Virus record (IMG/VR): IMGVR_UViG_3300023184_000036
Length of the DNA: 64,000 bases
Source: a virus
Reading direction: 5' to 3' (one strand)
Part shown: positions 53,082-56,613 of the stretch, piece by piece
Numbering within the stretch: the first letter of the stretch is position 1
Layout of the letters: each line of letters opens with the position of its first letter
Translations under genes and position numbers: made by a program
The notes under the pieces: generated by a model
The model's database searches: none
What the model saw: the letters and a program-made list of their open reading frames with translations, nothing else
What the model was told of the DNA's origin: nothing

Positions 53082-54005
53082 ATGCTTACTAGGTTTATTG
53101 CTGTTGCAGCCGCAACACTTATTAGTACTGCTGCTTTTGCAGTAGAAGTTACAGGTGCAGGTGCTACTTTCCCACAACCAATTTATATGAAGTGGGCAGA
53201 AGGTTATAAGAAGGCTACTAGCAATGTCATTAATTATCAAGGCATTGGTAGTGGTGCAGGTATCAAGCAAATTGAAGCAAAGACAGTAAATTTTGGTGCT
53301 ACAGATATTCCAGTAAAGACAGAAGACCTTGAAAAGAAAGGTCAAGTTCAATTCCCAATGATCGTTGGTGGTATTGTTCCAATTATTAACCTTAAAGATG
53401 TTGACCATCTAACATTAACAACAGACATTCTTGCAAAAATCTATATGGAAAAGATTAAACGTTGGAATGACAAGGAAATTGCAGAACTTAACCCAGGTGT
53501 AAAACTTCCTGACCTTCCAATCATCAAGATTCGCCGTGCTGATGGTAGTGGCACAACTTGGAACTTTACAAAGTTTCTTTCAGAAGCAAATGAAGACTGG
53601 AAGAAGAAGTATGGAATTGGTCAAACTGTTGAATGGGTTGGCGGTGCAATTGGAGCAAAGGGCAATGACGGTGTTGCAAACAACGTTTACCAAACAAATG
53701 GTTCAATCGGTTATGTTGAATATGCTTTTGCCAAGCAAAATGATCTTACTGTTGCTGATATGATTGGCAAGGACGGTAAGAAGGTTTCACCAGGTCTAAA
53801 AGCATTCCAGACAACTTGGCCAATGGTTGCTACAAGTTACATTGTTCTAAACAAAGAAAATGATAACAAAGAAGCAGTTCAAGCAGCAATCAAGTTCTTT
53901 GAATATGGTTATGCACATGACAAGGATGCAGAAGTACTTGACTATATTCCATTGACTGCTGCACAAAAGGCAGAAAGCAAAAAGGCTTGGTCTACAGTCA
54001 ACTAA
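53082..54005 (+). CDS. pstS: phosphate ABC transporter periplasmic binding protein
   Basis: signal peptide; GAGATFPQP.Y; NYQGIGSGAGI; FGATD; RADGSGTT; GAKGNDGVA; IGYVEY.FA. Confidence 0.95.
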   Translation: MLTRFIAVAAATLISTAAFAVEVTGAGATFPQPIYMKWAEGYKKATSNVINYQGIGSGAGIKQIEAKTVNFGATDIPVKTEDLEKKGQVQFPMIVGGIVPIINLKDVDHLTLTTDILAKIYMEKIKRWNDKEIAELNPGVKLPDLPIIKIRRADGSGTTWNFTKFLSEANEDWKKKYGIGQTVEWVGGAIGAKGNDGVANNVYQTNGSIGYVEYAFAKQNDLTVADMIGKDGKKVSPGLKAFQTTWPMVATSYIVLNKENDNKEAVQAAIKFFEYGYAHDKDAEVLDYIPLTAAQKAESKKAWSTVN

Positions 54006-54028
54006 TTTACATAAAATTACTGTAAAAT

Positions 54029-54068
54029 ATGCCCTACCAAATTATTTTTTGTAGGGCATTATTTTTTT
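54029..54068 (+). terminator. intrinsic terminator after pstS
   Basis: ATGCCCTAC...GTAGGGCAT followed by a T-run. Confidence 0.65.
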
Positions 54069-54069
54069 C

Positions 54070-54099
54070 TTGACATTATATTATTTTCGTGTATAAATA
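54070..54099 (+). promoter_or_regulatory. overlapping sigma70 and T4-type late promoter for the leader
   Basis: TTGACA-N16-TATAAA, with the -10 element forming part of TATAAATA. Confidence 0.7.
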
Positions 54100-54120
54100 A
54101 ACCCACAACAGAGAGTGAAT

Positions 54121-54201
54121 ATGATTAACACGCCTAAACATTACGATTATATCATTTGCCGCATGCCAGAAGGTTTCTGGATTACGGGGGCGTGTGCCTA
54201 A
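54121..54201 (+). CDS. attenuator leader peptide (26 aa)
   Basis: MINTPKHYDYIICRMPEGFWITGACA*; GAGAG RBS; its 3' end forms the 5' arm of an antiterminator. Confidence 0.7.
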   Translation: MINTPKHYDYIICRMPEGFWITGACA

Positions 54202-54261
54202 TGTGACCGCACATTAGTGTATGCACTTAGCCCCCGAAGCGAAAGTTTCGGGGGTTTTTTT
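54185..54261 (+). promoter_or_regulatory. mutually exclusive antiterminator and intrinsic terminator (attenuator)
   Basis: antiterminator CGGGGGC-GTGTGC-CTAATGTG / CACATTAG-TGTATGC-ACTTA-GCCCCCG; terminator CCCCCGAAGC-GAAA-GTTTCGGGGG-T7; both use CCCCCG at 54231-54236. Confidence 0.8.
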
Positions 54262-54516
54262 ATTTTCAGGACGGTAGCCCCTATGTATAAGGCTACCCAC
54301 CGACCAGTACTTGGGCCAAATGGCTGAATAGGTGGTTTCGGCGGTGAAAAATGGGGTGGGGTGTCAAGATTTTGACATTTTTACCCAAAATTGCCTAAAA
54401 TTTGTGCAAACTTTTTTTAATTTTCGTGCATTTTTTTCTTGACTTATTATATGGTTGTGCTATTATGCATATGTTGATGACGACATGGTGTCGTCCTTTT
54501 TATGGAGAAAGTAACT

Positions 54517-54783
54517 ATGACTATCGTATCAAATACAGACCGTGTTCTTGAAGCCCTTAAGTCTGGTGAGTTGCTCACCGCAAAGCAGATTTCTGCTCGT
54601 TTTGGCGTTGCCAATCCACATGCAGCTATCTCTGCAATCCGTCTCAAGGGTTATGCAGTTTATCTCAATGAGTATAAGACTGCCAAGGGTGAAGTAACAA
54701 AGAAGTATCGTCTTGGCAATCCTTCACGTGAGATCGTTGCCGCTGGTATGCGGGCTCTCATGGATGCTGGCGTTCGCATCTAA
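54517..54783 (+). CDS. small winged-helix/HTH DNA-binding protein
   Basis: VLEALKSGE.LTAKQISARFGVANP.A.IS.IR..GYAVY.N...YRLG.PSR; GGAG RBS; promoter at ~54439-54466. Confidence 0.8.
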   Translation: MTIVSNTDRVLEALKSGELLTAKQISARFGVANPHAAISAIRLKGYAVYLNEYKTAKGEVTKKYRLGNPSREIVAAGMRALMDAGVRI

Positions 54784-54814
54784 TTCTATAATTATAGGAT
54801 TATATAATGTTGTG

Positions 54815-54840
54815 AAGGGGGCGGCTTTCCGCCCCCTTTT
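54815..54840 (+). terminator. intrinsic terminator-like hairpin before tRNA-Trp
   Basis: AAGGGGGCGG-CTTT-CCGCCCCCTTTT. Confidence 0.65.
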
Positions 54841-54848
54841 AGTTGTTT

Positions 54849-54922
54849 ATCAGTGTAGTTCAATGGTAGAACGGCGGTCTCCAAAACCGCATATCAGGGT
54901 TCGATTCCTTGCACTGGTGCCA
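54849..54922 (+). tRNA. tRNA-Trp(CCA)
   Basis: anticodon arm GCGGT-CTCCAAA-ACCGC; GTTCGATTC; CCA end. Confidence 0.92.
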
Positions 54923-54966
54923 ATTATGACATTGACAAATCTGGCTGATGTAAATATAGTAGTAAC

Positions 54967-55218
54967 ATGACCCAATCAAGAACGCCAAGAGAAGTCAAAA
55001 ATAAACCCCTAGTTCCAGAAATTACATGTCCATATATTGACATGGTAATACAAATTATTGACCAAATGGAAGAGCAAGACAATGCTGAATGGCGTGGTGA
55101 ACAGGCCGCACTTGCTAAATCGCTGCTTGAGTATGTAAGATCAAGTAATGACAAATTACGTGCTAGTGGTAAGTTTTGGTATGAACGTTGTAAGAGAACA
55201 GGAAAAGATTTAGTATGA
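54967..55218 (+). CDS. hypothetical protein
   Basis: VPEITCPYID...LEYVRSSN.KLR..G.FWY. Confidence 0.65.
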   Translation: MTQSRTPREVKNKPLVPEITCPYIDMVIQIIDQMEEQDNAEWRGEQAALAKSLLEYVRSSNDKLRASGKFWYERCKRTGKDLV

Positions 55219-55862
55219 ACGGCACCATAGCAATTTTTATGGATCATCCACGGTGTTCTGTTGATGGCGTAAATGCTATAATGAACTCGCTGAACCCACA
55301 TTACAAGTTTAAAATACTTACAAAACACAAAGTCCAAGACCCTGATTTTTGGAATGATGTTGATATAGTTTGTATACCTGGCGGTATAGGTGACGCAGAT
55401 ACATTTAAGAAGATAATGAAACACCAAATTACACCAATTAAAGACTTCCTTGCAAGAGGTGGTCGTTATCTTGGTATTTGCATGGGTGCTTATTGGGCTG
55501 GTCCAAATTACTTGGATATCCTTAAAGGTCGTGATTGTGTGCAATATCTAGCACGTCCAAAAACTGATACAAGACGCCCACATGCCAAAGATTTAGAAGT
55601 TACTTGGTTAGGTAACAAAGAAAACATATTCTGGTATGATGGCTGTGCTATCACTGGTAAAGGTCAGTTTGATGTGGTAGCAACATATGCCAATGGCGAT
55701 GTCATGGCTGGCTATCAAGGTCGTATTGGATTGATTGGTTCACACCCAGAAGCAGAAAAGTTCTGGTATGACGAATATACTTGGATGAAGCCAAAATATA
55801 TTGGCAAAGAACGCAATCATGAATTATTACATGATTTTGTTGATGAACTTATGAAACGCTAA
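55215..55862 (+). CDS. BPL_N-like class I glutamine-amidotransferase-fold protein
   Basis: PGG.GD; GGRYLGICMGAY nucleophile elbow; G.HPE. Confidence 0.8.
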   Translation: MNGTIAIFMDHPRCSVDGVNAIMNSLNPHYKFKILTKHKVQDPDFWNDVDIVCIPGGIGDADTFKKIMKHQITPIKDFLARGGRYLGICMGAYWAGPNYLDILKGRDCVQYLARPKTDTRRPHAKDLEVTWLGNKENIFWYDGCAITGKGQFDVVATYANGDVMAGYQGRIGLIGSHPEAEKFWYDEYTWMKPKYIGKERNHELLHDFVDELMKR

Positions 55863-56107
55863 TGTTAGAATATATTATCGTATTTTTATCGATGTTTTTC
55901 GTAGATGTATTCTATGCAATATATCTTAAAAGCATTGAAAATAACAAACCTATATTTGCCTCTTTTATGGCTACAATTGTATTTTTTGTTGCAAGTATCG
56001 CAACAATAGGGTATATTGATAATCACTGGTTACTTGTTCCAGCTTGCATGGGTGCATTTGCTGGCACATGGGTTGGTGTAATGTATAATATTAAAAAGAA
56101 AAGCTAA
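55862..56107 (+). CDS. small membrane protein
   Basis: three hydrophobic segments; GAFAGTWVG. Confidence 0.65.
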   Translation: MLEYIIVFLSMFFVDVFYAIYLKSIENNKPIFASFMATIVFFVASIATIGYIDNHWLLVPACMGAFAGTWVGVMYNIKKKS

Positions 56108-56109
56108 TT

Positions 56110-56187
56110 GGGGAAGTGAGTGCGGAATGGTTACGCCAAGGTCTGCAAAACCTGTTCATGTGGGTTCGAGTCCCATCTTCCCCTCCA
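56110..56187 (+). tRNA. tRNA-Cys(GCA)
   Basis: GGGGAAG/CTTCCCC, U73, anticodon loop CTGCAAA, CCA. Confidence 0.9.
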
Positions 56188-56202
56188 ATTTTTTGGTGAT
56201 GT

Positions 56203-56613
56203 ATGAGAAAAAGATTTGATAGCGACTTATAGAATACAAATGATCCTGCAAAACAAAAGGCAATAGATTATTTTAAAAATCAAGGCGTAGATGCTATCGT
56301 AAATCCTAATGATTATGGCATTGACCTTATTGTAGATGATACATTTTACTGTGAAGTTGAGGTCAAGCATAATTGGCGTGGTGATAGTTTTCCATTTTCA
56401 ACGCTACAAATACCTGAAAGAAAGATTAAGTTTGCAAAGTTAGATAAACCAGTAGTGTTTATGGTGCTGAATAGTGAACACACACATGCACTTATGACTA
56501 CTGGTGAAGATGTTTTGGATTCTCCATTACGAGAAGTATCCAATAAGTTTGTCAAAAGTGGTGAGTTATTTTTCCAAATACCCACAAGTAAATTATTAAA
56601 AATTAAAATATAA
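56203..56613 (+). pseudogene. PD-(D/E)XK nuclease-like gene with an in-frame TAG at codon 10
   Basis: MRKRFDSDL*NTNDPAK...YGIDLIV...CEVEVKHNW...IPERK.KF...; otherwise an open 137-codon frame. Confidence 0.7.

Follow-up and report, generated by a model that had tools for sequence, protein, structure and literature searches.

In the trpL attenuator, the terminator is more stable than the antiterminator, and the antiterminator acts kinetically. The multivalent leaders of ilvGMEDA, ilvBN and thr sense several amino acids by mixed codons, two or three of them and in runs, and in the leaders of bmrB-bmrCD, vmlR, lmo0919 and ermK a ribosome stalled on a short ORF frees the antiterminator, by which translation stress is reported. 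The latter, antibiotic-responsive leaders control bacterial resistance genes and often need a drug-specific arrest peptide. The role and use of phage tRNA arrays is a long-standing question. Recent papers link phage tRNAs to escape from tRNA-cleaving defences (PMC10264068, PMC11464382, PMC11555353).

The module described here comes from a large uncultured lake phage. The window, that is the whole stretch of DNA analysed, comprises 64,000 nucleotides of this virus (IMG/VR record IMGVR_UViG_3300023184_000036). The element itself is short, about 200 nt. As in trpL, hisL, pheL, leuL and thrL, there is a promoter-proximal ORF, a stop codon beside a competing segment, an antiterminator and a terminator that exclude each other, and a small hairpin within the ORF. 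We read it as a ribosome-mediated leader-peptide transcription attenuator that would gate a phage structured RNA and a tRNA array, and assign this reading a probability of roughly 0.6. The switch is well supported by the comparison of related sequences; the input signal proposed below is tentative.

The sequence-only reading had proposed a promoter, a ribosome-binding site, an ORF, hairpins and a terminator for this locus, all of which were found at their positions; they are listed in Table 1 together with the parts further downstream. The sequence TATAAATA fits both a sigma-70 -10 element and the T4-type late promoter motif. It occurs five times in the 64-kb window as opposed to 9.3 expected copies, and since there are only five and each lies in sense orientation 20-60 nt 5' of a gene start, it is probably the late-promoter motif of the phage as well as a sigma-70 -10 element. 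The same sequence or a one-base variant is present upstream of most of the relatives' leaders. The sole Trp codon of the window leader is located at 54178-54180, and the small hairpin ending on it, in which an A-to-G change in locus L004 leaves a G-U pair, is possibly a pause hairpin for RNA polymerase. Folding gave -35.8 kcal/mol for the stretch through the terminator 5' arm (z = -4.1 against shuffles) and -57.3 kcal/mol for the complete leader (z = -4.7). The upstream pstS-like gene (53082-54005, PBP_like_2) has its own terminator. Downstream, the winged-helix gene starts at ATG 54502 or, more likely, at 54517, and matches HTH_39 (under the cut-off) and phrog_4973; the inverted repeat in front of it is possibly an operator of the winged-helix protein. 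The tRNA-Trp gene is the first of 18 same-strand tRNA genes in the window.

Table 1. Parts of the attenuator module and of the adjoining downstream region, in positions of the 64,000-nt window.
Feature	Position	Strand	Basis or remark
Promoter: -35 TTGACA (54070-54075), 16-nt spacer, TATAAATA (54092-54099)	54070-54099	+	sequence read
Shine-Dalgarno-like GAGAG, 5 nt 5' of ATG	54111-54115	+	retained in family-1 relatives
Leader ORF, 26 codons and TAA, 16 kinds of amino acid	54121-54201	+	open in 41 unique variants of 4-5 families
Tentative segment 1 (anti-antiterminator), complementary to 54188-54195	54129-54136	+	single-sequence folds
6-bp hairpin within the ORF, 3' arm ending on the Trp codon	54166-54180	+	folding
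Long imperfect hairpin enclosing the stop codon, 5' arm 54185-54205	54185-54236	+	folding
Block X (segment 2), codons 22-24, can pair with block Y	54185-54191	+	folding; X-Y change in L006
Inner hairpin of the antiterminator, 8 bp, 4-nt loop, stop codon in 5' arm	54198-54217	+	folding
Intrinsic terminator: 12-bp stem (54229-54256), GAAA loop, seven T	54229-54261	+	
Block Y (segment 3), base of terminator 5' arm, common to antiterminator and terminator	54230-54236	+	
Structured RNA, first sequence transcribed upon readthrough	54266-54346	+	covariation, 45 distinct sequences
H-type pseudoknot stem of the RNA, 5' end with P1 loop	54267-54270 with 54280-54283	+	
P1 of the RNA, 7 bp	54273-54279 with 54291-54297	+	
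P2 of the RNA, bulged A	54298-54305 with 54340-54346	+	
P3 of the RNA, 3 bp, AAAU cap	54315-54317 with 54322-54324	+	
Inverted repeat TGTCAA-N4-TTGACA over a promoter-like -35 box	54362-54377	+	kept in L005, L024 and L048
Winged-helix gene unit: promoter 54439-54466, 5' hairpin 54476-54495, gene end 54783	54439-54783	+	
Terminator-like hairpin (54814-54839), then tRNA-Trp (54849-54922)	54814-54922	+	

Relatives were obtained with a degenerate leader pattern and with two patterns derived from the RNA core, one run on viral contigs and the other on metagenomes; the contigs stem from freshwater metagenomes. The pattern searches yielded 101 instances, 51 of them distinct and with at least 330 nt of upstream sequence, and in all 51 distinct loci the RNA is preceded by the module, consisting of a promoter, an ORF of 24-50 codons, a hairpin at the stop codon and a terminator. 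Conversely, when family-1 leaders were sought with a pattern of their own, the RNA followed downstream of each one whose contig extends far enough. The 41 unique leader peptides form four to five very divergent families with low sequence identity between them: family 1, to which the window belongs, with leaders of 26-32 codons; family 2 with 32-35 codons; family 3 with 24-25 codons; and family 4 with 37-50 codons, a higher G+C content and a nearly leaderless start. Outside family 1, the ORFs are preceded by an AGGA-type box or are nearly without a 5' UTR. The distance from the stop codon to the T-run stays at 52-65 nt in all families.

The genes located 5' of the module vary among the loci (pstS, a methyltransferase or small ORFs), and the left border of the module is therefore its promoter. 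On the other side, a tRNA array follows just 3' of the module wherever the downstream sequence was read far enough. In L007 and L008, no more than about 25 nt separate the RNA 3' end from the start of tRNA-Trp (about 14 nt in L008), and the winged-helix gene is missing from both and from most relatives; by this comparison, its position between the RNA and tRNA-Trp in the window is taken to be a derived state, an insertion. The earlier caveat that an additional promoter and a terminator-like hairpin precede tRNA-Trp is thus right for the window, where the winged-helix unit intervenes. The closest sequence record is a virus contig of 338 kb that carries direct terminal repeats and shares 93% identity over the kilobase of the module. 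A search of cultured-phage DNA with 3.2 kb around the element returned matches to tRNA-Trp alone, and one structural protein of the window phage matches distant jumbo phages of the PA5oct type alone. The leader peptides and a 52-codon ORF discussed below match no PHROGs family, the neighbouring small ORFs have no Pfam match, and a protein search with a 50-residue family-4 leader found five close copies and nothing else.

For the analysis of the switch, each distinct sequence (n = 45) was folded over the region ending before the terminator 3' arm. Y, which comprises 4-9 nt at the base of the terminator 5' arm, pairs with X in 45 of 45 sequences, and in every one of them X is located 2-20 nt upstream of the stop codon, within the last seven codons. 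Y differs among the families, in which no fewer than seven sequences of it occur, and each time X and the terminator 3' arm change to match. Between L035 and L050, for example, a G-to-A change in Y is accompanied by C-to-U changes in the antiterminator partner and in the terminator partner, and in the L006 group of family 1 the X-Y pair changes from G-C to A-U while the terminator retains a G-U pair. In the family-2 alignment (A4), 85.8% of the antiterminator is paired and both sides have changed in 8 of 11 pairs; its covariation score of 0.485 compares with 0.264 for shuffled alignments, none of 500 reaching the observed value, and with at most 0.149 when the pairing is slid. The terminator in A4 is 100% paired, with both sides changed in three of six pairs. 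Column 82 of this alignment pairs with column 39 in the antiterminator and with column 107 in the terminator, and the three change together. The inner hairpin has a variable loop, and its stem shows a compensatory A-U to G-C change in L007, L009 and L023, where the stop codon lies 6 nt further downstream.

As controls, 40 other terminators of the same loci were subjected to the same folding procedure. These likewise find some upstream partner, but the gain from alternative pairing amounts to a median of 5.1 kcal/mol as opposed to 12.2 kcal/mol for the 45 leader terminators. A terminator and an antiterminator that are alternatives to each other, with both folds under selection, can on this comparison of sequences be regarded as established, since a static 3' structure would leave the selection on both partners of Y unexplained. 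Where the trp/his-type attenuator geometry had been asserted from one sequence, it is now found conserved, with the ORF end, the base of the terminator 5' arm and the 3' arm covarying three ways, and the proposed inspection of the regions upstream of relatives' tRNA arrays yielded a conserved leader ORF and covarying antiterminator and terminator helices. The antiterminator of 21 bp originally drawn must be shortened: its outer and inner stems hold, whereas substitutions in the close relatives L004 and L005 disrupt the middle stem, which probably does not exist.

The minimum-energy fold of the window sequence contains the terminator, which is therefore the fold favoured at equilibrium, and the top 3-5 bp of the terminator stem are free to nucleate despite the antiterminator. 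With the terminator as the thermodynamic minimum and its upper stem free, the antiterminator would have to win kinetically. In part of family 2, antiterminator and terminator overlap by about 4 nt. Single-sequence folds additionally place a tentative segment 1 in codons 3-5, paired with the X region, in family 1, and in family 2 in codons 2-6, paired with the codons that immediately precede X. In L004 a wobble change keeps this pairing, and among the sequences compared there is no clean compensatory change. The long-range helix between segments 1 and 2 is missing from the consensus fold of family 2.

The proposed mechanism can be outlined as follows. RNA polymerase would start at the promoter and transcribe the 26-codon ORF. 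A ribosome following closely would, once at the final codons or the stop codon, cover X, so that Y could pair with the 3' arm and transcription would terminate at the T-run. If the ribosome lagged behind or stalled upstream, X and Y would pair, the long hairpin would close, the base of the terminator would be lost and readthrough would result. As the leader samples nearly all amino acids, the rare ones about once, slow decoding of almost any codon would increase readthrough, and the readout would be general translation capacity or the supply of charged tRNA and not a single amino acid. That the position of the ribosome selects the fold, and in which direction and to which physiological signal the attenuator would respond, we infer from the sequences. 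The ribosome is favoured as the operator because the ORF, together with its start signal, has stayed open in all variants, X lies near the stop codon, the distance from the stop codon to the T-run is almost constant and the diversity of amino acids is confined to the reading frame; the location of X within the last seven codons means, by its geometry, that a terminating ribosome would cover it. Of the features that define leader-peptide attenuators, the comparison shows the short ORF with a start signal between promoter and terminator, the antiterminator that shares nucleotides with the terminator 5' arm and, by geometry, the stop codon beside the 5' segment of the antiterminator.

The composition of the leader was considered next to the structure. 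The count of 16 kinds of residue in the window leader is right, but this leader taken alone is not significantly diverse (P about 0.1). The wider claim, of a leader that contains many amino acids, is borne out by the family as a whole, in which diversity is under selection according to the lineage tests. Over 41 leaders, the number of amino-acid kinds has a mean z of +2.16 compared to protein segments of equal length. A Fisher test combining 11 deep lineages, whose representatives had been picked irrespective of diversity, yields a P of about 1e-9 relative to protein segments and of about 3e-9 relative to shuffles keeping the local nucleotide composition, values that are optimistic because the lineages share ancestry and their independence is overstated. 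The diversity exceeds chance in the frame of the ORF alone, with nothing unusual in the two remaining frames. All 11 lineages contain Cys, Trp and His, at non-homologous positions, as opposed to 3.3, 5.0 and 5.4 expected, and four lineages contain all 20 amino acids within 33-49 codons. These observations support the description as the amino-acid-sampling leader of a putative ribosome-gated attenuator. The further claim that 13 of the 16 residue types of the leader match tRNAs of the array did not survive, as the match is at chance level both for residues (20 of 26, where the background rate is 0.68; P = 0.22) and for codons (17 of 26, background rate 0.53; P = 0.135). Over 15 loci, the leader codons match the phages' own tRNAs weakly (z = 2.5, the loci not being independent of each other).

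If the attenuator gates what follows, the downstream genes should be considered in terms of their dependence on readthrough. In families 1, 3 and 4 the structured RNA starts about 5-15 nt past the T-run with no intervening promoter; in the window there is no promoter-like site between the terminator and position 54372. A 52-codon ORF that has a strong ribosome-binding site but no promoter of its own begins about 15 nt past the T-run in six loci, which belong to two leader families. In family 2, a strong sigma-70-type promoter is located between the terminator and the RNA, which means that the leader there is not the sole control and may only add to the transcription of the array. The family-2 leader, which is driven by a late-type motif, could be a separate transcription unit. 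Overall, the arrangement suggests that the module probably raises the transcription of the RNA and the tRNA genes when ribosomes read slowly.

This promoter of family 2 is also an argument for a different explanation, according to which the leader is an independent small gene, encoding a functional micropeptide or giving rise to a terminated transcript of about 150 nt that acts as a small RNA. It would have its own promoter and a leaky terminator, the hairpin would serve mRNA stability or translation control, and the tRNA array would merely lie downstream. A late-type promoter and a stabilising hairpin at the 5' end, which mark the family-2 leaders, are also typical of small genes with high expression, and some leader residues are conserved. 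In family 2, the conserved Gly17 and Pro21 are explained by an RNA hairpin and not by the peptide. There is also a precedent in Sinorhizobium meliloti, where the terminated attenuator transcript rnTrpL and the leader peptide peTrpL also act in trans (PMC6614838, PMC7968998). Those derive from a bacterial Trp attenuator with consecutive Trp codons, unlike the phage leader, and by analogy the terminated transcript or leader peptide of the phage may also act in trans. Nevertheless, we consider the small gene unlikely as the explanation of the module. A static 3' structure cannot account for the covariation of both partners of Y, and the location of X, always within reach of a ribosome at the stop codon, is left unexplained. 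Between the families it is the composition, that is the diversity, which is conserved and not the residue positions, and the peptides lack a PHROGs family. Moreover, the module is never found away from the RNA and the tRNA array, and families 1, 3 and 4 as well as the 52-codon ORF rely on readthrough.

A second alternative retains the same attenuator and assigns it a specific input, either the single Trp codon, as a feedback from charged tRNA-Trp, or a small molecule recognised by a TnaC-like arrest peptide. Trp was at first favoured as the single control codon, since exactly one in-frame TGG is present in 41 of 41 leaders, and was then set back because Cys and His are equally universal in the 11 lineages, which all-amino-acid sampling fits better; the single Trp then follows from a general rule of including every amino acid, with rare residues about once. 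The position of the Trp codon is compatible with control, as in families 2-4 it lies at least 14 nt before X, so that a ribosome stalled there would leave X free, and is borderline in family 1 with a distance of 7-8 nt. A tRNA-Trp gene is present in every array read far enough and is the first in the family-1 arrays, but in families 2 and 3 the first downstream tRNA gene is never Trp, and in family 4 it is the fourth in L182 and L209 and the last of eleven tRNAs seen in L192. A fixed arrest motif is made less likely by the distance between the Trp codon and the stop codon, which ranges from 21 to 75 nt, and by the flanking residues, which are not conserved. We regard a specific input as improbable.

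The input that we put forward instead is a supply-on-demand circuit, in which a test ORF containing all amino acids would, in phages with large tRNA arrays, gauge the speed of decoding by host ribosomes, and a slowing of decoding would open the attenuator towards the pseudoknotted RNA and the phage tRNAs. This is proposed tentatively, at somewhat less than an even chance. Within this proposal, the slowing may stem, for example, from anticodon nucleases that cleave host tRNAs, from degradation of tRNA, from starvation or from a codon mismatch.

In a further reading, the switch would be set in trans, by an RNA-binding protein, a tRNA or a small RNA, and translation of the ORF would be incidental. 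In its favour, it is geometry alone that points to the ribosome behind an otherwise well-supported switch, and a winged-helix gene and a conserved structured RNA adjoin it. We regard this reading as very unlikely. Although the leader sequences have turned over almost completely, every family keeps the ORF open together with its start signal, and the stop codon holds its place beside X. The amino-acid diversity is confined to the ORF frame, the winged-helix gene is absent from most relatives, and no conserved single-stranded leader motif was seen across the families.

The structured RNA behind the terminator is the first part of the presumed target. In 45 distinct copies, 95.8% of the cells of its alignment are paired, 14 of 21 pairs have changed on both sides and none of 500 shuffles reaches the score. 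No family in Rfam 15 matches 54266-54346 on the + strand, and the pseudoknotted RNA is proposed here as a new RNA class. It also contains long single-stranded boxes without any variation, which point to a tertiary fold or a binding site. Homology to T4 rnaC or rnaD was rejected, as a model based on the 45 copies has no hit in the tRNA region of T4, where rnaC and rnaD are located. Bacterial homologues were rejected as well: the RNA-core pattern gave 119 genome stretches, none of them alike, with the upstream GTACT box missing or in another context. No covariation is seen for an alternative pseudoknot in which the P1 loop would pair with the box immediately 5' of the conserved GGTGG, and a pairing of the terminator loop region with the conserved 3' box of the RNA was dropped because L009 combines both types with a mismatch. 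As ideas for its role, it could be a stable small RNA released via RNase P cleavage at the adjoining tRNA, or a cis-acting element that shields the long untranslated array transcript from termination.

In comparison with the known systems, the leader differs from the enterobacterial leaders in that it has no regulatory codon run and instead a maximal variety of amino acids (26 codons with 16 kinds here, and 34 codons with up to 20 in relatives), and in that it is encoded by a phage and would target an untranslated RNA and tRNA genes in place of biosynthetic enzymes. No sequence relationship to these leaders is seen: the Rfam His leader reaches 20 bits as opposed to a gathering threshold of 49 (E > 3), and the Rfam trpB motif 21.1 bits as opposed to 59 (E > 3). 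Since there are no codon runs and no Rfam match, the element is placed outside the trp, his, leu and thr families. T-box riboswitches are analogous insofar as a decision between terminator and antiterminator is tied to tRNA charging and lies upstream of genes of the translation apparatus; unlike the element described here, they bind uncharged tRNA directly and have no leader ORF, and the Rfam T-box model gave no match at E up to 10 within 53500-56500. A literature search found no description of an attenuator upstream of phage tRNA genes, in agreement with the sequence-only reading, which knew of no phage system of this kind.

Closest in concept are the ilv and thr leaders, which are multivalent, and those leaders of resistance genes that sense stalling. 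With the former the element shares mixed codons, which here represent 16-20 kinds of amino acid, mostly once or twice each; compared to the latter, its putative target is a phage tRNA array and its conserved feature is the diversity of the leader. If a conserved ribosome-operated switch does head these arrays, tRNA supply would be tied to the translation status and would not be constitutive. Leader-peptide attenuation would then be extended to viruses, to non-coding targets and to a leader that samples all amino acids, and if the supply-on-demand circuit holds, it would provide the first known case of a leader-peptide attenuator that controls tRNA genes, and also of one that senses all aminoacyl-tRNAs.

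The structured RNA behind the leader, the attenuator-like short ORF and intrinsic terminator that head the tRNA region, is new, spans about 85 nt, contains an H-type pseudoknot and shows strong covariation. Its position is constant, directly 3' of the leader terminator and 5' of the tRNA array. Rfam contained no match for it, and none was found in the bacterial genomes searched. In family 2, the related loci with leaders of 32-35 codons, an extra hairpin, P4, is located 3' of this RNA. In the family-2 leaders themselves, the codons for the conserved Gly and Pro residues form a small RNA hairpin, in which the base preceding the Pro codon co-varies with position 3 of the Gly codon, so that part of the apparent peptide conservation lies at the RNA level.

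Features of the window and of related loci (L-numbers)
Feature	Locus	Coordinates	Remark
Structured RNA	window	54266-54346	
Family-2 leader with Gly/Pro hairpin	L036	4971-5078	example
52-codon lysine-rich ORF	L006	2667-2825	insertion between leader terminator and structured RNA
Perfect inverted repeat TGTCAA-N4-TTGACA	window	54362-54377	overlaps promoter-like -35 box, upstream of winged-helix gene (54517-54783)
Conserved 5' UTR hairpin	window	54476-54495	compensatory change in L005
TATAAATA copies	window	1839, 15402, 29690, 50359, 54092	
tRNA with anticodon CTA	L229	8740-8814	ARAGORN label tRNA-Pyl
tRNA-like gene, abnormal two-base anticodon	L015	5188-5259	ARAGORN; directly 3' of structured RNA, before tRNA-Trp

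The 52-codon ORF also occurs in L007, L008, L055, L218 and L235, and two different leader families contain it. It has a strong ribosome-binding site, lacks a promoter of its own and gave no family match. Further oddities were observed in the tRNA arrays of the relatives. In L023 and in L009 (on the minus strand, immediately 3' of the structured RNA), a tRNA-Trp remnant comprising no more than roughly the 3'-terminal 25 nt of the gene adjoins the RNA and is followed by a GIY-YIG homing-endonuclease-like ORF, with an intact tRNA-Trp further along, an arrangement that looks like the scar of a homing-endonuclease insertion. The CTA-anticodon tRNA, a candidate amber suppressor, lies within a 21-tRNA array on a 223-kb metagenome contig of the same phage group.

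The inverted repeat preceding the winged-helix gene, which is located between the structured RNA and tRNA-Trp, is retained in L005, L024 and L048 and resembles an operator, putatively for autoregulation. For the gene itself, position 54517 is the more likely start, rather than 54502 as given in the ORF list, because a GGAG box at 54505 precedes the ATG at 54517. Its 5' UTR contains a conserved hairpin.

The motif TATAAATA is rarer than expected in the window (5 copies vs 9.3), and all copies are in sense orientation, 20-60 nt 5' of a gene start, the same placement as that of T4-type late promoters.
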